A stretch of DNA of 64,000 bases from Candidatus Xenobia bacterium (lineage in GTDB: Bacteria > Vulcanimicrobiota > Xenobia > Xenobiales > QWHO01), in NCBI GenBank assembly GCA_045863235.1, contig BTUM01000028.1:18117-82116 (forward strand). The letters run 5' to 3'. The position numbers and the translations under genes are program-made. A model generated the notes under the pieces. That model saw only the letters and a program-made list of their open reading frames with translations, did not search any database and was not told the origin of the DNA. This document shows, one piece after another, positions 36,114-54,128 of this stretch. Position 1 is the stretch's first letter. Each line of letters starts with the position of its first letter.

Positions 36114-37676
36114 TCATTTGAAATTCTGCGCCGGTGATGGGACTCCTGTGGTTTGGTGCTGCCTGGTAGGCAGGCGAACACTTCCGACCACCACCTGACC
36201 CTGGCGTTCTTCCACGCCCCCGCGGCTACTTCGCCCCACCTGCTCCAGGGCCGAGGCCACGGCCCGCTCGGGCTGGCTCTGATCAAAGAGCCTGGACTCG
36301 GCCTGGCGATTCAGGTTCTGGCACAGGATGTCGACCGCTTCCAACAAGCTCTTGCCTGCCAGCGCTCCGCCGGTCTGGCGCTCGAGTCGTAGGCGCTGCA
36401 GACACTCCACTTCCTGCCAGCCCCGGCCGCGCGGATTGAGGCGACGCAGGCTGGCCTGCAGACGGTCGTGGGCCTGCCGGGCGACGGGCAGGTCGCCGGT
36501 TGCCCGCAACTCGCTCCAGACGGCGCGGGTGGCCGCCATGTCGCGCTGGCAGTCCGAGTAGATGCGGGCCAGGGCCAGCTCGCGTTCCTCGCGCGTTTCG
36601 CTGCCGCAGGCCGATCGGGCCAGGAGGTGGCTGGTGAGGTGACGCCACTTGATGCGCTGCCAGCCGGCCCGGAGCTGGACTTCCTCGGACCGAAGTCTGT
36701 CGACCGCTGGATTTTCCTGGAGCTGGCGGGCTGACCAGTCGGGATCGCCCGAGAGGGCCAGCAGACGCAGGAAGTCTTCTCTTGGACCGCCCTCGCGCAG
36801 GCGAACGAGGGCGTCCCGGCAGCCGAAGGGCTCGGCACCAGGCCCCAGAGCCTGCTTGATCGCCTCGAGCTCGGAGTCGCCGTGGTCGAGTAGCTGCTGG
36901 TAGAGCTCGAAGTGCCCAAAGCGCCCGGGGGCAAATTCGAAGGCCTGCACCGCCGCCTCCAGGCGAGCACTCATCGGATGCTCGCAGTCGCGCTGCACGG
37001 CCCGGTGAGCGGCGTCAGCCAGGGCCGGGTCCTTCAGCTCGCGCGTCAGCCGGTTGAGCGGCTCGAGCCGGGCCATGACGGCCTGGTCGTCAACGAGCTC
37101 CGAGGGCTTGAAGGTGAGACCGGCCAGGCGCACCTCGTCGCTTGCCCCTCGGTAGAGGGCCATGGCCACCGTCTGGCTCGATTCGGGCAAGCCTCGGGTG
37201 AGGGTCCGACCGGTGTCGCACAGGGCCTTGAGCGAGCGGGCCAGGGCGGGTTGGGCCAGCTCCTGGTCTTTGGCACCGAGGCCGTTGAGGTAGGAGGCCA
37301 GCTTGAGCTCGTCCAGGTTGCTCACCACCAGCACGCTCTGGTCGGGCCGCGCGCGAAAGGACACGCGTTGGCCCTGGCTGAGGCGGGCGTAAGTCTCGGG
37401 CAGCTTGTTGCCCAACTGGCCTTTCAGCTGCAGGACCGTGGCCGCAAGCTCGCCGGGCGGGTCCGCCTCGAGGGCCTCCAGGGCGGTCAGCTCCTCGGGA
37501 CGGAACAGAGTCTGGTAGCCCTCCCGCGTGCGAGCCTCGACGCTCTTGCCCCGCGACAAGAGCTCGTGGGCCTCCTCGGCTTCCACCGGCCTTGTCTTGC
37601 CGCTGCCATACCAGGGGCCGAGCTCGCCGTAAGTGGCAGCCCGGGAAGGCATATCAGGACGGATCAAGGCCATCAT
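36114..37676 (-). CDS. Hypothetical helical protein with shared C-terminal motif
   Basis: 520-aa ORF; repeats resembling 43068 protein; VEERQGQVVVGSVRLPTR. Confidence 0.75.
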   Translation of the reverse strand: MMALIRPDMPSRAATYGELGPWYGSGKTRPVEAEEAHELLSRGKSVEARTREGYQTLFRPEELTALEALEADPPGELAATVLQLKGQLGNKLPETYARLSQGQRVSFRARPDQSVLVVSNLDELKLASYLNGLGAKDQELAQPALARSLKALCDTGRTLTRGLPESSQTVAMALYRGASDEVRLAGLTFKPSELVDDQAVMARLEPLNRLTRELKDPALADAAHRAVQRDCEHPMSARLEAAVQAFEFAPGRFGHFELYQQLLDHGDSELEAIKQALGPGAEPFGCRDALVRLREGGPREDFLRLLALSGDPDWSARQLQENPAVDRLRSEEVQLRAGWQRIKWRHLTSHLLARSACGSETREERELALARIYSDCQRDMAATRAVWSELRATGDLPVARQAHDRLQASLRRLNPRGRGWQEVECLQRLRLERQTGGALAGKSLLEAVDILCQNLNRQAESRLFDQSQPERAVASALEQVGRSSRGGVEERQGQVVVGSVRLPTRQHQTTGVPSPAQNFK

Positions 37677-37681
37677 GGCTC

Positions 37682-37713
37682 AGATTACGCCCTGGCTCTG
37701 AAAGGCCCCTGAA
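37682..37713 (-). promoter_or_regulatory. Direct-repeat box promoter
   Basis: TTCAG-N6-TTCAG-N10-TAATCT-N5-ATG. Confidence 0.65.
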
Positions 37714-37771
37714 GTCTCAATTCGTACCGCAAAAGCAGGGGACTGCCCCGAGAGCGCGTAACGGGCCCGGC

Positions 37772-38260
37772 ATGAGTCTGGGAATTGCTTTCAAGAGTTT
37801 CTTCAAAGCGCTGCAGGACAAGGAGTTCGCGGCCCGGGTGGGCGAGCTTTTGGCCGGGGGCAAGACCGAGAAGGTCCCTCCACCCCCCACCGCCGGGCAA
37901 CTGCTGGCCGTGCTGCAGCGCGAGGGCCGTTTCGTGGACTTCTTGCAGGAAGACCTCAAGGGCATCGGCGACGCTCAGATCGGCGCGGTGGCCCGCACTC
38001 TGCATGAAGGCTGCCGCAAGGTGGCCACCCAGTATCTGACTTTGGAACCCGTGCGCTCCGAGGAAGAAGGCGCCGCCGTCACGGTCGAGCCGGGCTTCGA
38101 CCCGGCCGAGGTGCGGCTGGTGGGCAACGTGGTGGGCGACCCTCCCTTCAACGGGACCCTGCGCCACCACGGCTGGAAGCTCACCCGGGCCGAGCTGCCT
38201 GAAGCTGCCGCCACGCCCGAGCGCACCGTGCTGGTTCCCGCGGAGGTAGAGCTTTCATGA
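37772..38260 (+). CDS. DUF2760-like protein (Hsp70-associated)
   Basis: QLLAVLQREGRFVDFLQED, VRLVGNVVG, LRHHGW, VPAEVEL; coupled to Hsp70. Confidence 0.8.
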   Translation: MSLGIAFKSFFKALQDKEFAARVGELLAGGKTEKVPPPPTAGQLLAVLQREGRFVDFLQEDLKGIGDAQIGAVARTLHEGCRKVATQYLTLEPVRSEEEGAAVTVEPGFDPAEVRLVGNVVGDPPFNGTLRHHGWKLTRAELPEAAATPERTVLVPAEVELS

Positions 38261-40011
38261 CCGAATCCACGTACATGGTCGGGATCGACCTGGGCACCAC
38301 CAACTCGGCGGTGGCCTTCATCAAGGCCGGCGATCCGCCCGAGAAGGGCGACTTTCCCGTGCAGCAGTTGGTGGGGCCCGGGCAACTGGAGGAGCGGCCC
38401 ACTCTGCCCAGCTTCCTCTACCTGCCCAGCGAGCACGAGTTTCCTCTCGATCAGCTCGAGCTGCCCTGGGATGAGGTGGCCACCTTCGCAGTGGGCGTCT
38501 TCGCCCGCGACGAGGGCGGCAAGGTGCCCCACCGCCTGATCTCCAGCGCCAAGTCGTGGCTCTCGCAAGAGGGCACCGACCGCCGGGCTGCCATCCTGCC
38601 CTGGAAGGCTCCTGAGGACGTGCCCCTGATGTCCCCGGTGCAGGCCTCGGCGAGCTACCTCAAGCACCTGCGCGACGCCTGGCGCTTCTATCATCCCGGC
38701 GAGCCGCTCAAGGAGCAGGAGGTGGTGCTCACGGTGCCCGCCTCCTTCGATGCGGTGGCCCGCGAATTGACCGCTGAGGCGGCCCGCATCGCTGACCTGG
38801 TCAACCTGACGTTGCTCGAGGAGCCGCAGGCCGCGTTTTACGCCTGGCTGGAGGCTACCGGCGACGAGTGGCGCTCGCAGGTGGGGGTGGGCGACCTGAT
38901 CCTGGTGTGCGACATCGGGGGCGGCACCACCGACTTCTCGCTCATCACGGTGGTGGACGCCGAGGGCGACCTGGGCCTGGAGCGCGTGGCGGTGGGCGAC
39001 CACCTGCTGCTCGGGGGCGACAACCTCGACCTGGCCCTGGCTGTGGCCGTGCAGGCCCGCCTGAAGGCGGAAGGCACGAAGATCGATACCTGGCAGTTCC
39101 AGGTGCTGACTCACGCCTGTCGCGCGGCCAAGGAAGCCCTGCTCGGAGCCGATCCCCCCGATGAGGTGGCCATCACCATTCCCGGGCGCGGCAGCAAGCT
39201 GATCGGGGGCTCGGTGCAGACCGCCCTCAAGCTCTCCGACGTCAAGACGCTGCTCGACGGCTTCTTCCCCAAGGTGAAGGCCAACGATCACGCCGAGCGG
39301 CGGCGCTCGCTGGGTCTGACCGAGCTGGGCCTGCCTTACGAGTCCGACCCGGCCATCACCCGTCAGCTGGCCCGTTTCCTGGATGGCCAGAAGCCTACCG
39401 CGGTGCTCTTCAACGGAGGCGTGCTCAAGGCCGACAGTATCCGCCAGCGCATCCTGACCGTGCTCAACTCCTGGCTCAAAGAGCCGGTGCGCGAGCTCGA
39501 GGGGGGCGACCTGGAGCTTTCGGTGGCCCGGGGCGCGGCCCGATTCGCCCTGACCCGTCGCGGCCAGGGCATCCGCATCCGGGGTGGACTTTCGCGCGCG
39601 TACTACATCGGCGTGGAGATCCCCCGGCCGGCCGTGCCGGGAGTGCCGCCGCCCATCAAGGCCGTGTGCGTGGCCCGTAAGGGCATGGAGGAGGGCACCC
39701 GGGTCGAGGTGCCCGTAGCCCGCTTCGGGCTGGTCGTGGGTCAGACGGTGGAGTTCCCCTTCCTGGCCTCGGCCCGCGAGGACGAGGTGGGCGCTCAGCT
39801 CGAGGACTGGGAGGACGAAGGCGTGGAGGAGATCTCCAAGGTCAGCGCCAGCCTCAAGGCCGACGAGCACACCCCCGGCGTGGTGCCAGTGAGCCTTGAG
39901 ACGGTGGCCACCGAGATCGGCACGTTGGAGCTGTGGTGCCACGAGCGCGAGGGCGAGGGGCGCTGGAAGCTCGAGTTCGAGGTGCGCGAAGAAGCGTCGG
40001 CCAGGGCCTGA
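38257..40011 (+). CDS. Hsp70-family protein (non-DnaK)
   Basis: GIDLGTTNS, TVPASF, EEPQAA, DIGGGTTD, LGGDN, FNGG. Confidence 0.9.
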   Translation: MTESTYMVGIDLGTTNSAVAFIKAGDPPEKGDFPVQQLVGPGQLEERPTLPSFLYLPSEHEFPLDQLELPWDEVATFAVGVFARDEGGKVPHRLISSAKSWLSQEGTDRRAAILPWKAPEDVPLMSPVQASASYLKHLRDAWRFYHPGEPLKEQEVVLTVPASFDAVARELTAEAARIADLVNLTLLEEPQAAFYAWLEATGDEWRSQVGVGDLILVCDIGGGTTDFSLITVVDAEGDLGLERVAVGDHLLLGGDNLDLALAVAVQARLKAEGTKIDTWQFQVLTHACRAAKEALLGADPPDEVAITIPGRGSKLIGGSVQTALKLSDVKTLLDGFFPKVKANDHAERRRSLGLTELGLPYESDPAITRQLARFLDGQKPTAVLFNGGVLKADSIRQRILTVLNSWLKEPVRELEGGDLELSVARGAARFALTRRGQGIRIRGGLSRAYYIGVEIPRPAVPGVPPPIKAVCVARKGMEEGTRVEVPVARFGLVVGQTVEFPFLASAREDEVGAQLEDWEDEGVEEISKVSASLKADEHTPGVVPVSLETVATEIGTLELWCHEREGEGRWKLEFEVREEASARA

Positions 40012-40080
40012 GCCTGGTAGAGGCCCCCGGGCGCGGGTTGTCGTATCTACTGGAAGCGACTTTTCGCTCGAGGGGGTTTC

Positions 40081-40968
40081 ATGCGCCTGTCGGTTCTCAC
40101 GCTCACCCTGGCCGCCTCAGTTCAGTTGGCCACAGCTCAGATGCCCGGCGGACCGTGCGGGCCCTGCGCCCCCTGCGGTCCGGCCCCGGCTGGCCCCATG
40201 GGACCTCAGACCATCATCGTGAATCCGGATGGTCCGATGGACCGCGGAATGCTCGACGATTCCTCTGACCCTGACCGGCCTGGCTATCGGGGTCCGGCTC
40301 CCGAGGGTCCCCCGGTCAATCCACTCGACCAGCGGGGCGCTGAGGATGCAACGCTGGGTCAGGTGCTCTCTCAGCTCAATCCCAACGAGCGCCAGCAGCT
40401 CGAGCAGATTCTTCAGAGCTACCAGAACGACATGAACGCCTACATCGCGAGTCATCCTCGGGCCTCCGACGCCATCGGTGTCAATGGGACGATCATGAAC
40501 GTCATCGAGAGCTTTCGAAGCACCACCGGTATTGGCACAAACGAGCGGGGCTGTGACCCGGTCTCCACCGCGGCCGGAAACATGATCGCCCCTCTCACCG
40601 GCCAGCCTGGCTCTTCCTGGCGAGTCCACGAGTATGAGTACGTGCCCAATCCCGACGCCACCGTCTCGGGGCACCTCGGGCGTCTTGTCGTGGCCGTTGG
40701 TGTTCCAGCCGTGGCCGGCAGCCTGGCCACAGGGGGGCCATGGGGTGGAATCGGCGGAGCTGTAGCCGGTGGGGCGGGTTGGGCCATCACCAGCTTCGAG
40801 CACAACATGGTCGTGCTGGTCAACAATCGCGACCCGAACTTGACAGTCGTGCTCGACCCACACGGAGCTCAGAGCGGAAACATCGACTCCGTGCACGGCC
40901 CCGGCCACTATTCAGGGGCCCGGATCGATGCGCAGTACCGCCCTCCGACCAGCACCGCACGCCCGTGA
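40081..40968 (+). CDS. Secreted protein with glycine-zipper hairpin and putative Cys-His-Asp triad
   Basis: Signal peptide; GCD, EHN and VLDP motifs. Confidence 0.6.
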   Translation: MRLSVLTLTLAASVQLATAQMPGGPCGPCAPCGPAPAGPMGPQTIIVNPDGPMDRGMLDDSSDPDRPGYRGPAPEGPPVNPLDQRGAEDATLGQVLSQLNPNERQQLEQILQSYQNDMNAYIASHPRASDAIGVNGTIMNVIESFRSTTGIGTNERGCDPVSTAAGNMIAPLTGQPGSSWRVHEYEYVPNPDATVSGHLGRLVVAVGVPAVAGSLATGGPWGGIGGAVAGGAGWAITSFEHNMVVLVNNRDPNLTVVLDPHGAQSGNIDSVHGPGHYSGARIDAQYRPPTSTARP

Positions 40969-41720
40969 GGCTCCACTTCTGGTTGGGTCTGCTCGCCTGC
41001 GCCCTGCTGGCCGCGGGGCCGGCTCAGAAATTGCAGCTGCGCTGTCGATTGGCTCAGGGCACGGCCTGGATCACCCGGGGCACCATGGTGGTCACCACCT
41101 CGGTCAGTGAAAAGGGTCAGACTGCCAGCAAGGAATCCAGCAGCAACATCGTCTGGCAGGAGAAGGTGGTGGAGTCTGACTCCATCCGCGGCGTCACGAA
41201 GGAGACCACCGTGGTCGAGCCCGAGCCGACCGTGCTCCGGTACCTCATCTCGCCGCGGCTCGAGCAAAGGGTCGTGAAGGTGGGCGAAGAGACCGTGACC
41301 CAGGTGGGCGCCTTGATGGCCCAACCGGCTCTCTTCCCGCTGCAGCCGGTGGCCGTGGGCGACAGCTGGGAGATTCAGGTCTCCGACAAGCTTTTCTTGC
41401 GGGGCGAGAGGGCGGCCGTCCCGGCCGACTTTGCCGTCAAGGGGACCGGCACGCTGCAGAAGATTGAGAACGGCCTGGCCGTTCTGAGCTTCGACCTCGG
41501 CTCGGAGCTGCGCGGTGTGCAGCCCGATGCCGAGGGTGCCTTGACGTACCTGACGACGACGACCATGAAGTGGACGATGGGGGTCGATCCTGCTACTGGC
41601 TTTGTGACCTGGCAGGAGATGCAGTCGACCTCGGATCAGTCGGTGCTACGCTCCACCGTGGCGGTGGGGCCGACCGTCCGCATCCTCACGAGCATGAGCC
41701 TCAAGAGCGAGAAGCTGTAG
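40965..41720 (+). CDS. Secreted beta-rich protein
   Basis: Signal peptide; GTGA overlap; FPLQPVAVGDSW motif. Confidence 0.65.
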   Translation: MRLHFWLGLLACALLAAGPAQKLQLRCRLAQGTAWITRGTMVVTTSVSEKGQTASKESSSNIVWQEKVVESDSIRGVTKETTVVEPEPTVLRYLISPRLEQRVVKVGEETVTQVGALMAQPALFPLQPVAVGDSWEIQVSDKLFLRGERAAVPADFAVKGTGTLQKIENGLAVLSFDLGSELRGVQPDAEGALTYLTTTTMKWTMGVDPATGFVTWQEMQSTSDQSVLRSTVAVGPTVRILTSMSLKSEKL

Positions 41721-41738
41721 TCAATCGCCAAGCCGGCG

Positions 41739-42104
41739 CTATGACTTTTTGGGGGGCATGGTGCCGGAAGCCGTGTAGTTGACCACTGCTTTCGAGGACT
41801 TGCCCATCCCGTAGCTCGCCTGCACGGTCAGCTCGATCGGAGCTCCCTCTTTGAGCTGGTTGGGCAGCGGAACCTGCCAGTTCCCCTTGGAGTCAGCTGT
41901 GGTGGTGGCGCTCAGAGTTCCCGTGACCTCAATCTGGGAGCCGGGAGTCGCCGTCCCCTTCAGGAGGAAGAGCTGGCTCACCTTGGAGCCCAGAGAGGGA
42001 AAGTCGACTTTTACGTTGACGCTTTCTCCCTGGGCGTTCGTTCCTTGGGAGCTGAGAATGAGCACCGACAGTGCGATCAGAATGCTGAGTCCTAAACGTT
42101 TCAT
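41739..42104 (-). CDS. Small secreted Ig-like protein
   Basis: Signal peptide; GTATPGS and ADSKGNW motifs; GGAGG RBS. Confidence 0.7.
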   Translation of the reverse strand: MKRLGLSILIALSVLILSSQGTNAQGESVNVKVDFPSLGSKVSQLFLLKGTATPGSQIEVTGTLSATTTADSKGNWQVPLPNQLKEGAPIELTVQASYGMGKSSKAVVNYTASGTMPPKKS

Positions 42105-42234
42105 GGGGCCTCCCGTTGGTGTCCTTGGTGGCCCTTGCTTTGATTTGAGAGGAGCCACCTCCTGCTCTGGAGGCGCGGCCGGAAAGGCCGTGCCGATCAA
42201 CACGTTGTGCTCGACCGACCGATTGAGCTTGAGC

Positions 42235-43002: not shown

Positions 43003-43028
43003 GGGTCAGCGGCCTTTGACCTTCTGCT

Positions 43029-43061
43029 TTCACGTTCCTTTCAGCTCCGCCGGGCTAGACT
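43029..43061 (+). promoter_or_regulatory. Direct-repeat box promoter
   Basis: TTCAC-N6-TTCAG-N11-TAGACT-N6-GTG. Confidence 0.65.
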
Positions 43062-43067
43062 CTCATC

Positions 43068-46000
43068 GTGGACATTCAGCGCCTACCGATCTCCTCTGCC
43101 TCGAGTCGCCCCGAGCATCTGGGGGCGGCCCGCGAGCTGGTGGCCCGCGGGCACACCCTGGAGCGCTTCGAGAAGTCGTTCTGGCGAGGCGAGCGCTGGA
43201 CCTCGGCCACCCCCCAGCAGGCCGCCGAGGCGCTGGCCGACCGGTCTCCCGTGCGCCTCAAGACCGACCAGGGCAAGACTCTGACCATCGCCAGCGGAGA
43301 GGACCTGCTCGAAGCCCACGCCCTGTGCGCCAACGGGCCGCTCCAGAGCCTGCCCTCTCCCGCCCTGGCAGCCGGACTCCAGGCTTTGGAGCGGTCCGGC
43401 CGCCTGCTGCGCGAGCAAGAGCCGGTCACCGCCTACGAGGCCTACAACCAGTTGACCGGCGATCCCAACCATCCCGGGAACGGTCTTTTGACGTTCGAGC
43501 AGGGCGGAGTCAGGGTTTCCCTGGCCAGTTCCGAGGTGGTGGCCACCACGGCCTACCTGGCGGCAGACTTCGGCGATGGCAAGGGGGTGCCACCCGAGGC
43601 CGCCCAGCTGGTGGCCTGGAAGAAGGGGGGTTACCAGCTCCCCTCGCTGCTCACCGCTTTTCATCAGGACGCTCCCCTGGAGCTGAGCTACCGCGGCTTG
43701 TCTCTGGCCCGGCTGGCCCGTCAGGACTGGGCCCGCCCCGAGACCAGCGCCACCCTCACGCAACTGCGAGAGCAGGTGGACGCCACCACTCGCGAGCTGG
43801 GCCGGCCGCCTTCCCCCCCGCAGTGGCAGTTGCTGCAGCTCGAGCCGACCAGGCCCTTTCAGGAGAGGCTCGAGCTCTTCAAAGAGCTGCCCGACCCGGA
43901 CCACTATCGCCTGGCACTCTCTCGCGCCGAAGCCGATCAGCCTTTGCTCGAGACTGCCCGCCCGGTGCAGCAGGCCCTGGCGGCGCTGGGGGCTCAGGCT
44001 CCCCTCGAGAGCCTGGAGCAGGCCTTCACCCATCTGGCCGGCTTGCAGGAAGAGGAGCGACCCGCCTATCTCAGTCTGCTGAAGGCCGGTGCCGCTCCCC
44101 CTCTGGCCTTGCACGCCCTGGCCTCGCGCGTGGGCCCGGAGATCGCCGAGCGCTGGCTGCGCGCCCTGCCCGAGCGAGAGTCGGCGGGGCTGCTGGCAGC
44201 CGCCAGCGAGATTCCCGCGGCGGTCGAGGCCGGGCCCTGGCTGGAAGGACAGCTCAACCGGCTTACCCGGGCCGGACTGCAGCCGGCCGAGGGGGCCCAG
44301 CTCTTGATGGTGCTGCTGGGCCGTCGCCAGTATGATCAAGCCGAGGCTCTGCAGGAGAGAGCGGCCGAGCTGCCTCACGCCGAGCTGCTGGCCGCCGCTA
44401 CCGCCGCAGGCCGGCTGTCCAGCGACGGGCCTTTGCTGAGGCTGGCCGCCGGCCAGGAGCAACCGGTGCCGGCCTACCGGACCCTGGCCGCCCAGATCCT
44501 CCCCGAGAACCAGGAGGCATTTCTGCAGTTGCACGAGCAGTGCGGACCGCTGGAGAAGTCGCTGGCGGCCTGGGAGGCCGTCAGCTCCGATCCGGCTCGT
44601 CTGTGCGAGCGCCAGCAAGCCTGGTCGCAGCTCAACCAGGCCGTCAAGTCCGAACAGGCTACCCATATCTTGAGCCAGCTGGGGCCCCAGGCGGACCCGG
44701 TGGCCTCGGTGCGCGACCTGCTGGCCCTGCTGCCGGCCGTGGGAGGGGATCTGGAGCAGGCCCGGGCGGCCTGGGACAAGCTGCAGGGAAACTCGTTCGC
44801 GGCTCAGCTCTTCGGCGTGACTCCCGAGGCCGAGCAAGCCTTGCTGGCGGCTCGCTACGTGGAGCGACGCGACCTGCCCTGCGCTCAACAGCCTCTGGAG
44901 GACCGCCAGCAGGCGTTGCTGGCCCTGGCTCGGGCCCACCGCGGGGATCTCCGCTCGGCCACGCAGGACTACCTGTTCATCGCCTCCGGCCTGGAGGATC
45001 CCGAGGCGCTGCCTCAGGCGGCCCACCTCATGCAGGACCTGATCGCGGCGACCGGCTCGAGCCGAGAGGCCCGGCTGGCTTATGAGCAGCTCTCCCGGCT
45101 CGATCCCGAGCAGGGTCCGGCATTGTACCCGGCTCTGCGGACGGCGCTGGCGTCGGCCGGCAGCGTGACCGAAGCCTGGCCCCTGTGGGAGGGCATCCGC
45201 AAGCTGACTCCCGAGGAAGCCCGCCAGCGCACCGCACCCCTCGACGACCCCGCTTTCAGCGCGCTTCCGGCCCGGGCTCGGGCCACTCTGGCGGCCGGAC
45301 AGCTCAGCGCGCCGCTCGGGCCCCAGGGAATCAAAGCCCTCAAAGAGATGGTTGGCAAGCTCTCGGGCCTGAGCTGGCAGGCCACCGGCTCGTGGGTCCG
45401 CCAGGACGGCTCCTACGTCCTCAGCCGGGCCAGCGCCGGAGGGGACGTGCTGGTTTCCGGTCCTATCGACCTGCCCGCCGACGGTCAGTTCGAAGCCAGG
45501 CTCTTCGCCAGTTGGGCTCTGCCCGAAGGAGCTCGCGTCAACTGGGATGTCAGCGCCGACGATGGCGTGACCTGGAAACCGGTGGTCTATGCCGAGAAGT
45601 CCAACGCCATCAAGGGAGAGCAAGGGTATTCCTTGAACGCCTATGCCGGCAAGAGAGTGCGCTTTCAGATCGCGCTCGCGAACGCGCAACCGGGCGCTGA
45701 AGCTCAATTCAAGCTCGATGGCTTGCGCCTGGATGAGACCAAGGTCCTCTCCCACGAGACCATCGGCACCAGTCAGCTCACCCAGACCGGCTCGCCAGCC
45801 GTCAAGGGGGAGGCGACCTGGACCTCGCCTCTGCTGACCATTCCAAAGGGCGCTGATTCCACGCTTCAGGTGCAGCAGATGACCTACAATCGCTCGCCCT
45901 TCAACGACATCGAGCTTCAGATCCAGGGCTCGAGCGGAGCCTGGGAGCAGGCTTCGTTCTTCTACAGCGACAGCTATGAGTCGTCCACTCGAGCCATCTC

Positions 46001-47009
46001 CCTGGAGAAGTATGCCGGTCAGACCATCCGTTATCGCTATCGCATGAACGTGAGCAAGACCGGGTCGGCCAGTTACGAGCAGCCCCACCTGAGCATCTAC
46101 GATGCCCAGCTGATCCACAAGAAGAAGGATCAGTCCGGGGCCCTGCACGAGGATCTCTTCCATCGCGAGCATCTCGACCCCATGACCGTGGCCCGCCTGG
46201 CGGCTGATCCGGCTGTGGCGGCATCGACTCGCGAGCGCCTGCTGCAGGGCTTGCAGGCTCTGGTCGAGAGTACGGGCCATTCGGGCAAAGCCTGGTCGGC
46301 TCTCGAGAGCTTGCGCTCGCAAGCCGACCAGCCCGATTTCGTGGACCGTTGTCGCGCCTACGGATACCTGATGGGCGGCGAGAAACCCGCCGAGAGGCTG
46401 GAGGAGCTGGTGGCGCACCTTCGTCCGGGCGACCGCCTGGAGGATCTGGCCCGCATCGCCAGCGTGCGCTCCGTGGAGCAACTGCTCGAGCTGCGTCGGC
46501 GTCTGGATGCCGAAGGAGCTCAGTCCGACAGCCTGGGCTTCGTGGCCCGGGCTGCCGGGCGGGGGATCGCTCCGGAATCGGCCTGGTCGGCCGCCGCTCC
46601 CCCCGTGGTCGGGTGCGAGCTGGCTCAGCGTCAGCAGCTGATCGAGAACCTGACGGAGAGTTTCGCGGCCGATGGGATTGGACTTTGGAACGAGCTCACC
46701 GCCTGGCGCGAGCCGGCCGACAACCCGGCCCGGACGGTGCGGGCCCTGACCCAGCTCGGAAAGCTGGTCCAGCCGCCTCAGCTGCTCGAGGCCCTGCAGG
46801 CCCTGCAGAAGGCTCGCCGGGAGGGCCAGACTTCCCGCTCGCTCCACGGCCTGGTAGAGGGGGTGGCCAACAAGATGCTGATGGAGGGTGGTGGCGACCT
46901 GGCGGCAGTGGTCCAGGCCACCCTGCTCGAGCGCGAGTCAGGCAGCCAGATCCTGGAAGAAGCCAACCGGATCATCTTGCCCGGCACCACTGTGGCCCGG
47001 CGCGCCTGA
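43068..47009 (+). CDS. Large helical-repeat protein with two jelly-roll domains and shared C-terminal motif
   Basis: 1313 aa; two SxxxYAGxxxR beta-sandwich units; ends ILEEANRIILPGTTVARRA. Confidence 0.78.
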   Translation: MDIQRLPISSASSRPEHLGAARELVARGHTLERFEKSFWRGERWTSATPQQAAEALADRSPVRLKTDQGKTLTIASGEDLLEAHALCANGPLQSLPSPALAAGLQALERSGRLLREQEPVTAYEAYNQLTGDPNHPGNGLLTFEQGGVRVSLASSEVVATTAYLAADFGDGKGVPPEAAQLVAWKKGGYQLPSLLTAFHQDAPLELSYRGLSLARLARQDWARPETSATLTQLREQVDATTRELGRPPSPPQWQLLQLEPTRPFQERLELFKELPDPDHYRLALSRAEADQPLLETARPVQQALAALGAQAPLESLEQAFTHLAGLQEEERPAYLSLLKAGAAPPLALHALASRVGPEIAERWLRALPERESAGLLAAASEIPAAVEAGPWLEGQLNRLTRAGLQPAEGAQLLMVLLGRRQYDQAEALQERAAELPHAELLAAATAAGRLSSDGPLLRLAAGQEQPVPAYRTLAAQILPENQEAFLQLHEQCGPLEKSLAAWEAVSSDPARLCERQQAWSQLNQAVKSEQATHILSQLGPQADPVASVRDLLALLPAVGGDLEQARAAWDKLQGNSFAAQLFGVTPEAEQALLAARYVERRDLPCAQQPLEDRQQALLALARAHRGDLRSATQDYLFIASGLEDPEALPQAAHLMQDLIAATGSSREARLAYEQLSRLDPEQGPALYPALRTALASAGSVTEAWPLWEGIRKLTPEEARQRTAPLDDPAFSALPARARATLAAGQLSAPLGPQGIKALKEMVGKLSGLSWQATGSWVRQDGSYVLSRASAGGDVLVSGPIDLPADGQFEARLFASWALPEGARVNWDVSADDGVTWKPVVYAEKSNAIKGEQGYSLNAYAGKRVRFQIALANAQPGAEAQFKLDGLRLDETKVLSHETIGTSQLTQTGSPAVKGEATWTSPLLTIPKGADSTLQVQQMTYNRSPFNDIELQIQGSSGAWEQASFFYSDSYESSTRAISLEKYAGQTIRYRYRMNVSKTGSASYEQPHLSIYDAQLIHKKKDQSGALHEDLFHREHLDPMTVARLAADPAVAASTRERLLQGLQALVESTGHSGKAWSALESLRSQADQPDFVDRCRAYGYLMGGEKPAERLEELVAHLRPGDRLEDLARIASVRSVEQLLELRRRLDAEGAQSDSLGFVARAAGRGIAPESAWSAAAPPVVGCELAQRQQLIENLTESFAADGIGLWNELTAWREPADNPARTVRALTQLGKLVQPPQLLEALQALQKARREGQTSRSLHGLVEGVANKMLMEGGGDLAAVVQATLLERESGSQILEEANRIILPGTTVARRA

Positions 47010-47139: not shown

Positions 47140-48111
47140 TTAAGGCTTGGCGGTGCGGGCCTCGATGGCCGCCTCGCGGGCCCGGGCTTCCTCCGCTCGC
47201 AGGGCCTGACGGCGCTCGTATTCGGCGTCGAACTTGCCCTTCACGATCTCGTGGAAGATCTTCCGGTTGATCCCCTGGTCCTTGAGGAATTGCTCCTCGG
47301 TGATCTGTCCCAGGGCAAAGGCTTTCACGCCCGGGTCCTGCCAGCAATGGGGCTCGCGGCCCGTGGTCTCATAGATCAGCTTCTCCCACTTGCGGAAGAA
47401 GTGGGTTTTCGTCATCAGGGGGTTCCACATCCCGTTCACGATGCAGTAGTTGTCGGCCCAGGGCATCCGGTGATGGATGGCGTGGTCCTCCTTGGATTGG
47501 ATGACGTGCAGTTTCTGCATGAGCTTGGCGATGGCCGGGGGATTCTTCTGGTGGCTCCAGCGATGCGAGCCCTGGGCCACGAAGCCGGCGGCCGAAAATC
47601 CCAGGGTGAAGGCCTGCGCCGCCCAATGGGGCCCGGCGGCAGCGACGGCGGCCATGGGGACCCACATGTACTTCCCCGCGTCGGACATGTTGGTCCAGAC
47701 GGTCTTCTCCTGCAGTTCCTGCATCTTGTGATGGTGGACCTGGAATTCGTAGGCCAGGTCGCCCACGATGGGGGTCTTGTAAGTCGGGTAGTTGTCGATC
47801 CAGTGGTGGAACATGCCGCTGGCCAGGTCGGCGGTCACGTGCCCGGCTGCCATGGCCACCAGCGAGCCGGCGACCACGCCGACCGCGCCCGGAACGCTGC
47901 CGGTGGCGGCGGCCTGAAGCGCGATGTTGGCTCCCAGCCAGAGCCCGGACCCGATCACGGCCCCGCAGGCCAGCTTGTCTTTCAGGGGGGTGGTGTACTC
48001 CCTGGTCACCTTGAGGTCCACCGGATCAGGCGCAGCGGCCTGTGCAGGTTTGTCGGGGGCAGCGCGGCCCGGCAGCCCGGGGCTGAAAGTGGTGAGGGTG
48101 GGGATCATCAT
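47140..48111 (-). CDS. CarF/TMEM189/FAD4-family membrane lipid desaturase
   Basis: DLASGMFHHWIDNY, FQVHHH, SHRWSH, HAIHH, NYCIVNGMWNP; GGAGG RBS. Confidence 0.85.
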   Translation of the reverse strand: MMIPTLTTFSPGLPGRAAPDKPAQAAAPDPVDLKVTREYTTPLKDKLACGAVIGSGLWLGANIALQAAATGSVPGAVGVVAGSLVAMAAGHVTADLASGMFHHWIDNYPTYKTPIVGDLAYEFQVHHHKMQELQEKTVWTNMSDAGKYMWVPMAAVAAAGPHWAAQAFTLGFSAAGFVAQGSHRWSHQKNPPAIAKLMQKLHVIQSKEDHAIHHRMPWADNYCIVNGMWNPLMTKTHFFRKWEKLIYETTGREPHCWQDPGVKAFALGQITEEQFLKDQGINRKIFHEIVKGKFDAEYERRQALRAEEARAREAAIEARTAKP

Positions 48112-48148
48112 CTCGGGGGTCCTCCAGTGGCGATATCTGTGCGCGCTC

Positions 48149-48203
48149 AGGTTACCCCATCGAGCTTGAATCGCACTGGGGAGAACCTTGACCAGGCCTT
48201 GAC
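48149..48203 (-). promoter_or_regulatory. Direct-repeat box promoter (extended)
   Basis: TCAA-N7-TCAA-N18-TCAA-N11-TAACCT (11-bp phasing). Confidence 0.5.
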
Positions 48204-48252
48204 CACCCATATCAGGAGAGGTTGATCTTCTCTGACCCCGAACTGCCCACGA

Positions 48253-49509
48253 ATGGCCTCGGTGGGACGTTTTCGCGAGCAGATGCTGACCTATCTCACG
48301 GTCGGGGCCGAGCTCGAGCATGCCCTTTGCTGCCAGTATCTTTTTGCTGCCTTCTCGCTTAAGAGGAGTGTCCAGGAAGGCCTTTCCTGGGCCGAGCTCG
48401 AGACCGTGCGCGAGTGGACCGCGGCGCTCTTGCTGGTGGCTCGCCAGGAGATGGAGCACCTGGGCTACGTCTGCAACCTGATGACGGCGCTGGGCGGCAC
48501 GCCTTACCTGGAACGGGCCAGCTTCCCCTACGCCCAGGGCTACTGGCCCACCCACCTGCGCTTCGAGCTCAAGCCTTTCTCGGTCGAGTCCTTGACCACG
48601 TTCGTGGAGTACGAGCGTCCCCAGGGCGTTCGCGACGAGTTCTCGCGCCCGGTGGAGCGTTTTCCTCACCCTCCCAGCGCCTCCCAGCGGTTCACCGACA
48701 TGCCCATGGAGTTCGAGGCGGTGGGAGACCTCTACGCGCAGATCCTGCGGCGGCTGGAGAGCTGTCCCTACGCCGACGAGGTGCTCTTCGTCGGGCCGCG
48801 TCGGGCCCAGATCGACAACGAACTGCTGGGCAACGATCGGCGCGGGTATGCGGGAGTGAACGTCAATCCCGTGGTCGATCGGGCCTCGGCCCTGGCGGCC
48901 GTGGCCCAGATCATCGAGGAGGGGGAGGGAGCCACCGCCGTCTGCCCCACCGGGCATTACCAGATTTTCCTCGACATCCTGCGCGATCTGGCGTCCCGCC
49001 CCGCTGGCTTCGCCCCGGCCCGACCGGTGGCCGACAACCCCTGCGTGCGTCCCGCGGCGCTGGCGGGGGGAGCGCAAGTCATTTCGGATCCCTTCACCGC
49101 CCGGCTGGCCGACCTCTTTGACGGCTGCTACGAGCTGATGTTGAGCATGCTGTACCGCTTCTCCATCCAGTCCGAGGAGAGCCCCCAGGAGATGGCCTTC
49201 CTGCAGCGGATGACCTTCTTCCCTCTGATGACCCAGGTCATCCGTCCCCTGGGAGAGCTGTTGACCGAGCTGCCCATGGGCCCCGACCATCCCGGCCTGA
49301 ACGCCGGTCCCACCTTCGAGCGCCCCCGTCTGGCCCTGGTGAGCAGCCACCACCAGGGGGCCTGGACCATGATCCGCGAGCGTTTCCAGGACCTGAGCCT
49401 CAGCTGCCAGGCACTGGCCGACCGGCGAAGCGATCTCGAGCGATTGCAGCTGTTGGCTCAGGTTCTCAGGCGATTGTCCATGCTCTGTCAGGGAGTGGGA
49501 GCGTGCTGA
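48253..49509 (+). CDS. Ferritin-like di-iron protein (VioB/RebD C-terminal type)
   Basis: ELEH..QYL.AAFS, EMEHL...NLM.ALGG, QIIEEGEG, HY motifs. Confidence 0.8.
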   Translation: MASVGRFREQMLTYLTVGAELEHALCCQYLFAAFSLKRSVQEGLSWAELETVREWTAALLLVARQEMEHLGYVCNLMTALGGTPYLERASFPYAQGYWPTHLRFELKPFSVESLTTFVEYERPQGVRDEFSRPVERFPHPPSASQRFTDMPMEFEAVGDLYAQILRRLESCPYADEVLFVGPRRAQIDNELLGNDRRGYAGVNVNPVVDRASALAAVAQIIEEGEGATAVCPTGHYQIFLDILRDLASRPAGFAPARPVADNPCVRPAALAGGAQVISDPFTARLADLFDGCYELMLSMLYRFSIQSEESPQEMAFLQRMTFFPLMTQVIRPLGELLTELPMGPDHPGLNAGPTFERPRLALVSSHHQGAWTMIRERFQDLSLSCQALADRRSDLERLQLLAQVLRRLSMLCQGVGAC

Positions 49510-50321
49510 TCGTCTGCTTTGAGGGATGGTTTCAGGTGCGCCTGGCCACCGACCCCGACCCCGCCGACGAGCCTCGGGGAGTCAGCGGCACAACCTTCGC
49601 CGTGGCAGGCGAGCCGGATTTCGACCGGATCGTGCGCTTTCACGATCCGGTCGCCCCGCGCAGCTTCGGCCAGCCGGTAGGGGTGTTCGTCCACCAGGTC
49701 TCGCTCGAGGGACAGCTCCAAGCGGAGCATCCGCTGCTGGGGGCAAAGGTGGAGATGCTCGACGACCCCATCTTCATGAACCACAACAACGTGGTCACCA
49801 TCTCCGAGACCGAGCCGATGGACCCCTTTCACATCAAGCTTTGGCGGGGGCGGCTGAGCTTGGAGCGCAACGACTACTGGGACCCGTCCCGGCCCGAGCT
49901 GACCGCCTTCGAGGCCCCTCCCGAGCTCATGCAGCGGCGCCTCGGGGTGCTGAGCAAGGATTCAGTCAAAGTGGGACTGACCACCGGGATCACCGACTAT
50001 GCCGCTTACCGACTGGAGCGTCGCCGCAACCTGGAGGAGGAGCTGGCTCGAACCCGCGACGAGGTGGCCTGCCTGGCACTGAGCAAGCGCATCAAGGAGT
50101 TGTCGCGAGAGGATGATACCTTTCCCCGCGAGCGTCTGGGCTACTGCATGACCTACCGCTTCGCCCTCAACGGCCGGGCGCTCGTGGAGGACCCGGACGG
50201 GCAACTGGGAGGTACTCCCGATCTCGAGCGCGACTGGCCGCTCGAGCTGTGGATGGGGGCCTACGATTCGGACACCCTGTGCGGCTTCACCACCGGCATT
50301 CTCCAGGTGCCTCTCCGATGA
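49503..50321 (+). CDS. Hypothetical protein coupled to the ferritin-like gene
   Basis: Overlapping start; FEGWFQVRLATDPDP N-terminus. Confidence 0.7.
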   Translation: MLIVCFEGWFQVRLATDPDPADEPRGVSGTTFAVAGEPDFDRIVRFHDPVAPRSFGQPVGVFVHQVSLEGQLQAEHPLLGAKVEMLDDPIFMNHNNVVTISETEPMDPFHIKLWRGRLSLERNDYWDPSRPELTAFEAPPELMQRRLGVLSKDSVKVGLTTGITDYAAYRLERRRNLEEELARTRDEVACLALSKRIKELSREDDTFPRERLGYCMTYRFALNGRALVEDPDGQLGGTPDLERDWPLELWMGAYDSDTLCGFTTGILQVPLR

Positions 50322-50623
50322 GGCTTTTTCCCGTCGATCAGCCGGTGGACACCCCCTTCAAGCGGGGGGTGGACAAAGCGGCCTACCTGGCCGCCCTGCT
50401 CGGCCCCATGACCACCGTGCCCCAGATCGTCCAGATCTACCAGACGCGCAGCGCCGAGGATATCAGCATCCTGGCCTGGGCCGGGTTTTCGGTTTACTCC
50501 GCCTTTTGGGTTCTTTACGGCTGGGTCCATCGCGACCTGCCGCTGACGCTCGCCAACCTGCTCTGGACCCTCCTGCAAGGGATGGTCCTGGTGGGAGCCA
50601 TACTCTGGGGAGGTACCCTGTGA
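50318..50623 (+). CDS. SemiSWEET/PQ-loop transporter
   Basis: PQIVQIY..RSAEDIS, W..YG, LANL; 3 TM. Confidence 0.85.
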   Translation: MRLFPVDQPVDTPFKRGVDKAAYLAALLGPMTTVPQIVQIYQTRSAEDISILAWAGFSVYSAFWVLYGWVHRDLPLTLANLLWTLLQGMVLVGAILWGGTL

Positions 50624-53268
50624 AGAAGACTCTGACCACGTTGCTGCTGGCCGCTTGCCTGCTCTCGGCCTGCAGTTCGCCCGCGCCTCAGGCCGCCACG
50701 CCCACCAACCCCGACATTCCCGGTCTTCCTTTCCCGCTGCCAAGCACCGTGTCTCGCGACGAGTTTCAGCCCAGGCTGTACAAGTTTCTCACCGACCTGA
50801 CCTATCGCAACCTGCCCGGCTGGCGCAAAGACAAGGGGGTGCGGGATACCGGTCCTTTTCTGGACGGGGTCTACTACGGCACCCATCCGGCCGTGCGCAC
50901 CTACTACTCGCCCGAGGTCTTTGCCTGGATGAAGGCGGGTCGGGTCGGGAAGATCCCCGATGGGGCGATGATCATCAAGGAGATGTACAATCCGCCGGCG
51001 GCCCGCTACGCCGGGCTCAATCCGGATACCTCGCTGCCCATGCCGACCTGGACCTGCATGATCAAGGACAGCGCCGGCTCGAAGGATGGTTGGTACTGGG
51101 TCTACTTCGACTCCAACCCCAACGGCACCACCCCACCCACACCCCAGCCGGTGGACTCGGACGGCCCTCCCTTCTCCTACCCCAACTCCGGTTTCGGCTC
51201 TTACTGCGTGCAGTGCCACACCTCGGCTGACGGCGAGGAGTTCACCTTTGCCGCCCTGGAGAACGTCGCAGGCGAGCCGGGTACGCCCATCACCTATGAA
51301 GATGACGGCTCCTGGCGTCAGATGAAGGATTATCAGTTCAAATTCATGGCTCGCGTGCACACCCCGCTGGACGGGTCGGTTGATTCACCGGCTGACCCCG
51401 GCTATGTCAACGAAGAGTTCGTGGCCCAGTTCAACACTTTCGGAGATGCCGCCAACGGGCCGATCCAACCCATCCCCGGGGTCACCACCGATCGCTCGGT
51501 TGCTCAGGCGCATCGCCAGTTCGTCAGCTCGGATCAGTGTATGTCCTGCCACGCCGGAGACAGCTCTCCGTTCGGACCCAACATGTTCTTCCCCAACGAG
51601 GGCAAGGACGGGGTGGACGTCTCGCCCTTCGCCGAGTGGAGCTGGTCCATGATGGGCCTGGCCGGACGCGATCCCATTTTTCACGCCCAGCTCGAAGGGG
51701 AGGTGGCCACCCATCCGGCTCAGGGCCAGCTCACTCCCGAGAGCATTCAAAACCTCTGCTTTTCCTGCCACGGGGTCATGGGTGAGCGTCAGCTCAAACT
51801 TGACGATCCGCATGCCAATTTCACCCAGAGTCGAACCCAGGATCCCAACGACCCGTACGGCAAACTGGCCCGCGACGGGGTCTCGTGCGCCCTGTGCCAC
51901 CAGATCCAGGACAATCGGCACGTCCCGCTGGTGGACGTGCAGACTGGCCGCTTCAGCCTCAACCCGCGGAACCCGCAGGGCGAGCTGGTTCTCAACGGTC
52001 CCTTCGATCATCCCGTGACCTTCCCCATGGGCAAGAGTCTCAACGCCGAGCCCGTTCACAGCTCCTTCATCTCCGACTCGAGGCTGTGCGCGAGCTGTCA
52101 CACGGTGTTCCTGCCCGTGCTGGATGCCCAGAACAACGTGGTGGACAATCGTTACGAGCAGGCCACTTACCTCGAGTGGCTCAACTCCAGCTTCCGTGAC
52201 GGCGGCCCCAGCCCTCAGAGTTGCCAGCAGTGCCACATGCCTGATACTGCCTTCGGCCAGTTGCTCAACAACTTCAAGATCGCCAACATCCAGGACCAGG
52301 ATTATCCCATCACCTCGAACCTCTCGCCCCTGAACCTCATCACCGTGCTCAAACGCCCGGGATTCCGCCGCCATACCCTGTTGGGCATCAACCAGTTCGG
52401 GCTGGAGTTCTTCCAGCACTTCCCGGCTCTGCTCGGCATCAGCAAGGTCAACTTCATGTCCGGTACGACGGACGGTCTGACCAGGGCCATTCAAAACAGC
52501 CAGGAGCTGGCCCGCGAGAAGAGCGCCCGGGTGGAGCTGTCCGGTGTGCAGAGGGCGGGCAACGCGCTCTCGGCCCAGGTGAAAGTCACCAACCTGACCG
52601 GCCATCGTTTCCCCAGTGGAGTCGGCTTCCGCCGCGCCTTCCTCCTCTTCGAGGTGCGCGACGGAGCGGGCCAGGTCGTCTGGGCCTCGGGTCGAACCAA
52701 CTCGATCGGCGTGATCGTCGGCCCCGACGGTCAGCCTCTGCCCAGCGAGTTCCACGACGTCGATCCGGCCACCGGACAACAAGCCTTCCAGCCGCACTTC
52801 CAGACCATTACCTCGGAGAACCAGGTGCAGGTCTATGAGGAGATCGTGGCCGACCTGCAGGGCAAGTTCACCACCAGTTTCCTCAACCGGGCCACCGACA
52901 TCAAGGACAACCGCCTGATGCCCCTGGGCTGGACCTTCCCGGGTCCACCCGGCTTTGCGCCTGAGTTCGCCGAGGCCACCGCCCCCTTCGGCGGTGCGGC
53001 CAATGACGCCGACTTCACCGATGGCACCGGCTCGGACACGCTCAGCTACCAGGTCACCCTGCCGGCCGGCGCGGTGGGCCCCTTCTCGGTGCGGGCCGAG
53101 CTGTTCTACCAGGCCATCCCGCCTTACTACCTCCAGGACCGGTTCACCGACTCGCAGGGCCCGGCATCGCTGCGGCTCTACTCCATGGCCAGCAAGCTCG
53201 ACACCCTGAAGACCAACTTCCCCAACTGGAAGTTGCCCATCGCCGAGGCCACCGGTCAGGTTCCCTGA
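50620..53268 (+). CDS. Hexaheme c-type cytochrome lipoprotein with N-terminal cytochrome P460-like domain
   Basis: Lipobox LSAC; PDGAMIIKE..MIKD..GWYW..CVQCH plus CMSCH, CFSCH, CALCH, CASCH, CQQCH; GHRFPSG. Confidence 0.85.
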   Translation: MKKTLTTLLLAACLLSACSSPAPQAATPTNPDIPGLPFPLPSTVSRDEFQPRLYKFLTDLTYRNLPGWRKDKGVRDTGPFLDGVYYGTHPAVRTYYSPEVFAWMKAGRVGKIPDGAMIIKEMYNPPAARYAGLNPDTSLPMPTWTCMIKDSAGSKDGWYWVYFDSNPNGTTPPTPQPVDSDGPPFSYPNSGFGSYCVQCHTSADGEEFTFAALENVAGEPGTPITYEDDGSWRQMKDYQFKFMARVHTPLDGSVDSPADPGYVNEEFVAQFNTFGDAANGPIQPIPGVTTDRSVAQAHRQFVSSDQCMSCHAGDSSPFGPNMFFPNEGKDGVDVSPFAEWSWSMMGLAGRDPIFHAQLEGEVATHPAQGQLTPESIQNLCFSCHGVMGERQLKLDDPHANFTQSRTQDPNDPYGKLARDGVSCALCHQIQDNRHVPLVDVQTGRFSLNPRNPQGELVLNGPFDHPVTFPMGKSLNAEPVHSSFISDSRLCASCHTVFLPVLDAQNNVVDNRYEQATYLEWLNSSFRDGGPSPQSCQQCHMPDTAFGQLLNNFKIANIQDQDYPITSNLSPLNLITVLKRPGFRRHTLLGINQFGLEFFQHFPALLGISKVNFMSGTTDGLTRAIQNSQELAREKSARVELSGVQRAGNALSAQVKVTNLTGHRFPSGVGFRRAFLLFEVRDGAGQVVWASGRTNSIGVIVGPDGQPLPSEFHDVDPATGQQAFQPHFQTITSENQVQVYEEIVADLQGKFTTSFLNRATDIKDNRLMPLGWTFPGPPGFAPEFAEATAPFGGAANDADFTDGTGSDTLSYQVTLPAGAVGPFSVRAELFYQAIPPYYLQDRFTDSQGPASLRLYSMASKLDTLKTNFPNWKLPIAEATGQVP

Positions 53269-53300
53269 TTCAGGGATCTGTCAGCTTGCCGAGCTAGACT
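53269..53300 (+). promoter_or_regulatory. Direct-repeat box promoter
   Basis: TTCAG-N6-GTCAG-N10-TAGACT-N6-ATG. Confidence 0.65.
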
Positions 53301-53306
53301 CGGGCC

Positions 53307-54128
53307 ATGATCGCGCCACTGGCCCTGGGAGGGCATATCCAGCCCTGGGAGCGCGAGCCGCTGGAGCGTCTGGCCGAGCAGCTCGATCGCTACCAGTCGC
53401 TGGCGCGTAGCGAACGCGAGGCGCGTAAGTATGCCGACCAGCAGCAGACTCTGCGGGCGCTGGTGGCCGACCCGAGCCTCTCGTCCAGGGCCCGCGGTTC
53501 GGTGCTGGCCGGCTGGTCGAGCACTCCCGCTCCGGGATACTGGCTCAACCACTGGGAGCAGCTCACCGGTGCCCCTCGTGAAGAGCTGTACTGTCAGGCG
53601 GACAAGTTGCTCTCGGGAGAGCCCCCCAAAGTGCGCGAAGCTCTCTCGCAGCTGCCCGCCGAGTGTTTGGTGCGAGCCTGTCAGAGCTCTCTGGGTGCCG
53701 ACTTCACCCCCCCGCAGGACGCTACCGCCGGCGAGCTGGCGGCCGCCGCCCAGGCTGCTCAGTCGAGCAGGGGGTTGTTCCACAGCGAGCGGACCGCCCG
53801 CATGCTGAGGGGCCTCTTCCAGGCCGAGCTGGCTCCGACCGAGCGCCAGCGAGGTTTCGAGCTGGTGGGTGACCGGCTGCACGCTCTGCGGATGAGCGAT
53901 GCCACCGGCTATGTGGCCCAGGTCTCCGAGTTGATCACCCGACCCGAGCTGACCTCGACCGTGCGCCTGGGAGCGTTGCTCCACCTGGGTCCGGAGACCG
54001 AGTTGGAGCACGCTGTCGAGGCCGCTCGACTGACCAGCGCCCTGGAGCCCGCCCTGACTGCGGTGAGCGAAACGCTGGGATTCGTTCAGTTCAACGGGGT
54101 GGTGCTGCGCAAGCGCGTCAACTCCTGA
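53307..54128 (+). CDS. Hypothetical helical protein with shared C-terminal motif
   Basis: 273 aa; ends VSETLGFVQFNGVVLRKRVNS. Confidence 0.7.
   Translation: MIAPLALGGHIQPWEREPLERLAEQLDRYQSLARSEREARKYADQQQTLRALVADPSLSSRARGSVLAGWSSTPAPGYWLNHWEQLTGAPREELYCQADKLLSGEPPKVREALSQLPAECLVRACQSSLGADFTPPQDATAGELAAAAQAAQSSRGLFHSERTARMLRGLFQAELAPTERQRGFELVGDRLHALRMSDATGYVAQVSELITRPELTSTVRLGALLHLGPETELEHAVEAARLTSALEPALTAVSETLGFVQFNGVVLRKRVNS

Follow-up and report, generated by a model that had tools for sequence, protein, structure and literature searches.

A window of 64,000 nt, the whole stretch of DNA analysed here, belongs to an 8.36-Mb genome (G000; 65.8% GC, 97.6% complete) assigned to Candidatus Eremiobacterota, class Xenobia, and encodes three proteins that share an 18-residue motif, hereafter the tail, at or near the C-terminus. 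The analysis confirms the tail as a genuine module that appears to be undescribed; it would be a variety of C-terminal secretion tag, its exact role being a matter of deduction. It is found as a portable unit on about 190 co-regulated and mostly unrelated proteins, and is read tentatively, though quite plausibly, as an accessory C-terminal targeting handle for flagellum-derived type III export.

The tail as a portable C-terminal module

The three 18-mers translate exactly as given in the preliminary description of the window, at 36162-36215 (minus strand), 46950-47003 (plus) and 54063-54116 (plus). Their ends lie 15, 1 and 3 residues ahead of the stops in open reading frames (ORFs) of 520 aa (36114-37676, minus), 1313 aa (43068-47009, plus) and 273 aa (53307-54128, plus), respectively. 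The three carriers are otherwise divergent, as outside the tail nothing significant is held in common (best BLAST E 0.10), and no Pfam family was matched over cut-off by any of them. The 520-aa protein has no paralogue in the genome, and the 1313-aa protein belongs to the largest tail-bearing cluster (38 proteins). RNA-library contigs covering the 1313-aa gene occur in four studies at a depth of about 2-6, for which DNA carry-over is possible and from which neither start and strand nor transcription itself can be read.

A loose regular expression applied to the genome gave 37 matches, 35 of them within 15 aa of the stop. When an iterated position-specific scoring matrix (PSSM) was run over all six-frame ORFs at a cut-off of at least 18 bits, 190 tail matches were recorded in 189 ORFs, of which 177 lie within 20 aa of the stop (17% expected); the reversed-sequence control gave one match. 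Removal of one short overlapping ORF leaves 188 carriers. Of the 96 matches that a PSSM trained on odd contigs recovered on even contigs, 89 were C-terminal (background 16.8%, p 3e-60). A PSSM built from the three window tails alone placed the match within 20 aa of the stop in 47 of the 50 top non-window ORFs. The window tails, in the order given above, score 38, 26 and 35 bits with the full matrix and 36, 22 and 33 bits with the odd-contig one. The further C-terminal copies predicted for a profile search were thus obtained in large number, with a strong positional bias and on unrelated proteins. The pattern proposed earlier describes the three tails correctly and differs from the genome consensus, [VI]xE-x4-[VLI]x[VIL]GG[V]R[VLI][RKP][RK]R, since in the window tails the GG turn is replaced by the atypical GS, PG and NG.

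C-terminal extensions of 0-29 aa after the tail are common, some proteins bear two copies, and among the 13 non-terminal matches six lie 22-29 aa and seven 173-321 aa from the end. The internal copies and the extensions together indicate that a free C-terminus is not needed. In several proteins (G000:C3:76161, C3:123379, C32:68044, C135:163; L119) the tail is followed by a repeat domain of 170-220 aa of the YNP-x-x-G-x-V-x-W type, an order that is retained in a relative, G099.

AlphaFold2 on 108 aligned tails returned three short strands, at positions 14-17, 20-23 and 26-29 of a 33-mer, with a predicted local distance difference score of 75-80, and the column profile places charged residues between the 4-residue strands. 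In the model of the 273-aa protein the tail stands apart, after a low-confidence linker that follows an all-helical body. Among five distant orthologues (52-56% identity), conservation is highest in the tail core (72% identical), lower in the body (56%) and lowest in the linker (10%), which points to selection on the tail. The tail is predicted to form a tethered three-stranded beta-meander; of the beta-hairpin suggested in the preliminary description, the beta structure is retained and the plain hairpin is not. From the strand register, the conserved aliphatic positions would lie on one face of the sheet, and therefore the module would need something to pack against.

One candidate for such a surface is another tail. 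Two or three tails might pack their hydrophobic faces and oligomerise the carriers, for which the C-terminal foldon offers a comparison. The predicted face of five aliphatic residues, the acidic start and basic end of the basic form, and the presence of two copies in some proteins are all in keeping with self-association. It is nevertheless improbable, since an acidic form of the tail found in relatives is without complementary charges, a common oligomeriser on 190 co-expressed proteins would give mixed complexes, and the tie of the tail to N-termini without a Sec signal (see below) is not explained.

No significant match for the tail was obtained in the PDB sequence search, NCBIfam, Foldseek (full protein and tail) or VIA-align, the best weak matches being uL24 (E 0.8), a VIA Z of 2.0 and Foldseek E of at least 3; a 33-residue model is too small to exclude membership of a family. 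A separate NCBIfam run with 99 tails was likewise negative. The uL24/KOW likeness was taken as that of a generic hairpin and set aside. The preliminary description did not recognise the tail as a named family, and no Pfam, NCBIfam or PDB family is matched.

Shared promoter, N-terminal leader and export machine

All three window tail genes possess the direct-repeat promoter ascribed to them, with a TAnnCT element 5-6 nt before the ATG or GTG. The copies are TTCAG-N6-TTCAG-N10-TAATCT at 37682-37713 (minus; 5 nt before the ATG of the 520-aa gene, 27 bits), TTCAC-N6-TTCAG-N11-TAGACT at 43029-43061 (plus; 6 nt before the GTG of the 1313-aa gene, with an 11-nt spacer instead of 10) and TTCAG-N6-GTCAG-N10-TAGACT at 53269-53300 (plus; 6 nt before the ATG of the 273-aa gene, 28 bits). 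A fourth copy at 57520-57551 (minus, 25 bits) precedes a small gene without a tail. Genome-wide the promoter reads TTCAG-N6-TTCAG-N10-TAnnCT with ATG or GTG mostly 6-7 nt downstream, and it stands before 120 of the 188 tail genes, among 316 promoter-class genes of 7259 (odds ratio 62). The geometry of promoter and start agrees with the leaderless state claimed for the three genes, and it is from this geometry only that genes are called leaderless here. Among regulon genes of at least 150 aa, 116/230 leaderless ones carry the tail vs 4/61 of those led by a Shine-Dalgarno sequence (p 5e-11).

The relatives compared are 201 genomes of the phylum, sorted into families (f numbers) and genera (g numbers). 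The promoter pattern occurs in 4/4 genomes of f1, 16/16 of f3, 3/3 of f4 and 1/19 of f2, and almost never in the reversed control. The arrangement, an 11-bp repeat beside a -10 element, is that of OmpR/PhoB-type activators. Upstream of flgB on G000:C27 the box takes an AT-rich form, TTAAC-N6-TTAAC-N10-TAnnnT (13 bits), and similar AT-rich boxes precede another regulon gene (C3:176108) and a copy of the pilin gene described below (C27:56809). For comparison, the accessible part of PMC4832192 gives PhoP boxes as 7-bp repeats with a 4-bp spacer. A response regulator, OmpR-type by eye, is encoded in the window at 56158-57466 (minus) and adjoins a tail-less regulon gene; it is one possible activator among several.

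The 188 carriers have a median length of 471 aa and, once the tail is removed, fall into 92 clusters. Of these carriers, 92 were scanned with Pfam in addition to the three of the window, giving 14 beta-propellers, two InhA-like MAM proteins, one HD_5 protein and 75 with no family. Judged by crude N-terminal hydropathy alone, a hydrophobic Sec or transmembrane (TM) signal is present in 0/116 leaderless carriers vs 1606/6423 called genes. An M-x-[IVL] start is found in 69% of these 116 carriers against a background of 20%, and S and P abound in the first 25 residues. This N-terminus resembles the leader of substrates of type III secretion systems (T3SS), a likeness of composition and not of demonstrated function. 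In the relatives, propellers with a non-Sec leader have the tail, and those with a signal, TM or kinase N-terminus lack it. Enzyme-like regulon members, called by eye, are mostly without a tail, and the neighbours of the 188 tail genes include no recurrent immunity or chaperone family. The co-regulated and secreted-looking carriers favour the secretion, sorting or chaperone-binding tag of the preliminary description; that the tag acts in secretion rather than after delivery can be stated only conditionally.

The genome holds a full flagellar-type export and basal-body cluster (flgBC-fliEFGHIJK-fliMNOPQR-flhBA), and FlhA, FlhB, FliP/Q/R, FliI/H/J and FliF/G/M/N are over their Pfam cut-offs. Flagellin was not found in the genome, and tblastn with flagellar genes of two relatives, the query names being assigned by the reader, gave no FliD, FlgD, FlgH, FlgI, FliS or MotA; one MotB query gave a partial-domain match only. 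In the cluster (G000:C27:60723-79219) fliQ-like and fliG-like genes are each present twice and the hook position is taken by a short gene of FlgE/F/G type, and flhB lies beside flhA in 43 of 51 loci of relatives. FlhA relatives at 96-99% identity are records named Ca. Eremiobacterota/Vulcanimicrobiota, with Xenobia, UBP9 and Bruticola further out, and several carry other labels, e.g. two 100% matches under Burkholderiales. A search for 16S rRNA found none assembled in the genome, and the taxon is taken from the names of these FlhA relatives. A separate motility flagellum exists in G051, the FliI of which is only 55% identical. Five proteins consist of the cytoplasmic FlhA domain alone (FlhA-C paralogues, L007-L011; G000:C80, C3, C1, C106, C107); judged by eye, FliG-like helical parts are joined to two of them and an FlhB-C-like part to a third.

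Just downstream of the export cluster, three tandem genes encode an identical 81-aa Gln-rich protein (L005:13987-15052; G000:C27:55989-57052), which is without a Pfam match and is nearest to HrpA/HrpE pilin clusters by language-model features (0.91, 180 shared features). They are followed by the gene for a 473-aa protein that ends in the same pilin-like domain (L005:12349-13770). The pilin-like family has nine matches in the genome and is present in 48 of the 201 phylum genomes, and one pilin gene copy has the regulon promoter at 27 bits. The machine behind the carriers is likely this flagellum-derived type III system.

A different route was also weighed, in which the tail is the recognition signal of a type I (T1SS) or type II secretion system (T2SS), a type IV pilus or some machine as yet unrecognised. 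C-terminal signals are typical of T1SS and of type IV secretion systems (T4SS), T2SS and type IV pilus secretins are present in the genome, and two tail genes directly adjoin a T2SS cluster. T2SS and type IV pilus routes need Sec or Tat substrates, and no such signals are seen on the carriers. VirD4 (PF02534) has 0 matches in the 97.6% complete genome (control positive in 5/14), and neither have the contractile sheath PF04984 and VipB PF05943 (controls positive in 3/14 and 1/14). The N-termini and the promoter moreover point to the type III locus. On the T2SS, T4SS and sheath markers that were searched, such a route is the least probable of the explanations considered, and the analogy to T4SS and type IX secretion system (T9SS) signals drawn earlier fails on the same observations, namely the lack of VirD4 and of Sec signal peptides on the carriers (0/116). 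Encapsulin PF04454 was not found in G000 (control positive in 3/14); it occurs in 6/29 genomes, unrelated to the presence of the tail.

The pilin and export locus is adjoined by a lon gene, here and in G067, which raises the idea that the tail is a degradation or quality-control tag clearing unexported and potentially toxic substrates via Lon or Clp. A terminal position, the want of structure of the tail on its own, its basic nature in most lineages and the lack of a recurrent immunity gene after tail genes would suit such a tag. Its probability is put very low, since the common extensions and the seven internal copies show that the free end is dispensable, and the conserved turn and the periodicity fit a fold rather than a linear degron.

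Distribution and proposed role of the tail

The basic-tail profile matches in 24 of the 201 phylum genomes, 13 of which have at least three matches (f1, f4, f10, f18 and the f2 genera g8 and g9); the 120 genomes of f14 give only eight single weak matches. At fetched loci of relatives the tail is C-terminal in 18 of 19 matches. When 1.84 billion representatives were searched, 21 passed E 0.001, 19 of them with the match at the end; of ten looked up, the three with names are Eremiobacterota hypothetical proteins.

In genus g6, propellers with a non-Sec leader end in an acidic tail, and those with ordinary signals have none. An acidic-type end was found in 11 of 27 sampled leaderless genes of G057, and the acidic profile gives 34 and 19 matches in the two g6 genomes. 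Family f3 had been taken as tail-less, which the acidic form in g6 refutes. The basic and acidic profiles align in hhalign with a probability of 92 (E 7e-7), and their net charges are +3.1 and -1.4, respectively. The existence of a homologous acidic form implies that the basic end is not the signal, contrary to the basic tail proposed earlier.

Phylogenetic profiling against the secretion machinery, as recommended in the preliminary description, gave a divided answer. All 15 genomes with at least three tail matches have the pilin, and this nesting is compatible with a link, not a proof of it; many genomes with the machine or the pilin are without multiple tails. In genus g5 (G047, G065, G071, G079, G093, G101) both the export cluster and the regulon of leaderless genes are retained; no match was obtained there with two pilin-family queries, and no tails were seen.

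In the targeting reading, an OmpR/PhoB- or SARP-type activator would turn on about 300-400 genes, including the pilin copy, and the N-terminal leader would be the actual export signal. The tail of the finished protein would then pack its aliphatic face onto a cytoplasmic partner, a putative chaperone or gate-associated adaptor, and thereby let scarce substrates, translated from leaderless mRNAs, dock at a higher rate. The protein would finally lose its fold and pass through the pilus into a host or prey cell. The charge at the end of the tail, which is lineage-dependent, would not itself be the signal and would determine how well the tail fits its partner. The tie of the tail to leaderless genes follows on the assumption that these genes yield less protein.

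Several observations weigh against this targeting role. The low expression from leaderless mRNA is an assumption, and the accessible part of 10.1101/2020.05.06.081141 does not state that such mRNAs give less protein. About half of the leaderless regulon genes of the genome are without a tail, and the seven internal tails precede another domain or a second tail. A regular expression that recovers only 89 of the 188 own tails found a tail-like end in 0/19 sampled leaderless-regulon genes of g4 and 0/22 of g5, and g4 has the leaderless regulon and the pilin all the same. The pilin is present without multiple tails in 33 other genomes, and export-type FlhA across the whole clade. With the pilin in 48/201 genomes, the machine clade-wide and multiple tails in only 15, kinship confounds the nesting, and export in general does not require the tail. 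In flagella, the known C-terminal signals are not beta modules but helical D0 segments, found on homologous subunits; the carriers are not flagellar subunits and their tail is predicted to be beta, so that it does not class as a D0 segment. The export loci of ten relatives contain no charge-reversed protein matching the acidic tails. The search for a partner in these loci and among the neighbours of the tail genes brought up none. Three acidic paralogues of the YbjN/T3SS-chaperone fold (L265:3124-3585, L266:3650-4084, L267:3567-4001), from a family about 70% identical in f3 genomes, do not track the tail, being acidic with both tail types and present in the tail-less g5; the family is a candidate binder of the N-terminal leader.

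Two further partner searches were made. The FlhA-C paralogues were discarded as tail partner, as the tail-bearing g8 has no more FlhA-like matches than the tail-less g2. A CesT search of the genome gave no match and is uninformative, as the positive control was also silent.

The same distribution bears on a role after export. The carriers could be type III substrates whose tail acts in localisation, anchoring or adaptor binding, either at the tip of the pilus or inside the host or prey cell. The tail is found mainly on propellers, helical-repeat and MAM-domain proteins, and mostly not on enzyme-like members; it also occurs ahead of another domain or a TM helix, and many lineages with the machine are without it. 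The tail, unlike the export apparatus, reverses its charge from one lineage to another, for which a change of host would account. Set against this, the tie to leaderless genes is not explained by such a role itself, and it would ask much of a single localisation signal to serve 92 unrelated clusters. A post-export function is accordingly considered rather unlikely.

The targeting role can be extended to a wider proposal, possible if doubtful, in which Xenobia have an independently evolved, flagellum-derived injection pilus with 300-400 substrates and a two-ended code. The N-terminal leader would grant export, and the beta tail, read by a lineage-matched partner, would prioritise the products of leaderless mRNAs. 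If so, type III effectors would for the first time be seen to share a C-terminal module, and an exchange of the core between a fixed promoter-leader and a fixed tail would be the way in which new effectors come about.

Neighbouring genes and comparison with known systems

Between the tail genes, the window encodes on the minus strand (47143-48111) a lipid-desaturase-domain protein (PF10520) that lacks the tail; its leader is S/P-rich and not of the Sec type, and the box of its gene is weak (8 bits). It is followed on the plus strand (48253-53265) by a ferritin-like gene, an uncharacterised partner gene, a gene for a small membrane protein and one for a multihaem cytochrome (P460/c7 matches), a run that leads directly into the promoter of the 273-aa tail gene. 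Also on the plus strand are a gene for a 1116-aa protein without a Pfam match and then a GrpE-like gene (11729-15731), and a small unknown gene followed by an Hsp70-like gene (37772-40008).

Outside subscription papers, nothing was found in the literature on the tail motif, the promoter regulon or a Xenobia type III system. The accessible part of PMC9259500 mentions secretion systems and possible predation for marine relatives, and that of PMC11484240 holds no passage on secretion. Used together, tail and promoter allow about 190-320 candidate secreted proteins per genome to be picked out by sequence in an uncultured lineage. Most carriers are without a known family and point to a large undescribed set of candidate secreted proteins, and the basic and acidic tails constitute a natural swap system for finding the partner. 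Type III effectors are normally addressed at the N-terminus only. A C-terminal module common to unrelated substrates would, if true, extend the rules of type III substrate selection.

C-terminal tags on unrelated proteins are known in the T9SS C-terminal domain (CTD), PEP-CTERM and GlyGly-CTERM; all depend on a Sec signal peptide, to which the sorting tails add a TM helix, and the Por/Gld machinery of T9SS is known from Bacteroidota. Unlike the T9SS CTD and the PEP-CTERM, GlyGly-CTERM and LPXTG tails, the present carriers show no Sec signal and no TM helix between the motif and the end. Non-flagellar T3SS possess an S/P-rich, non-cleaved N-terminus, a promoter box shared across a scattered regulon and an HrpA-like pilin, and their signals, like the beta-motif sites of class I chaperones, are N-terminal. 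The Xenobia genome is similar in the S/P-rich N-terminus, the promoter box, the putative HrpA-like pilin and the proteins of YbjN/T3SS-chaperone fold, and differs in that its apparatus keeps the flagellar FliO, FliM/N, FliE and FlgBC.

As far as the accessible part of PMC8740702 goes, the XVIPCD of Xanthomonadales T4SS effectors is likewise folded, portable and C-terminal; it occurs on diverse effectors, and the secretion machine recognises it. It differs in being about 120 aa long, with a Gln-rich tail, and in binding VirD4, which was not found here; the present module has 18 aa. FlgN, FliT and FliS bind the C-terminal region of their substrates in the cytoplasm and pilot them to FlhA-C, according to the accessible text of PMC8527033; these sites follow a rule of one chaperone per structural substrate with disordered or helical ends, and FliS and the substrates were not found in the genome. 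For FlgE, FlgC and FlgG, the part of PMC10936197 that is available describes a C-terminal signal for initial targeting, the loss of which is offset by higher expression and which is absent from FlgD. That signal is a D0 segment of homologous structural subunits, unlike the separable beta module on about 190 unrelated non-structural proteins, to which it has no sequence likeness; in the reading favoured here, the Xenobia carriers would nevertheless be alike in combining an N-terminal export signal with a C-terminal targeting signal for a flagellar-type machine.

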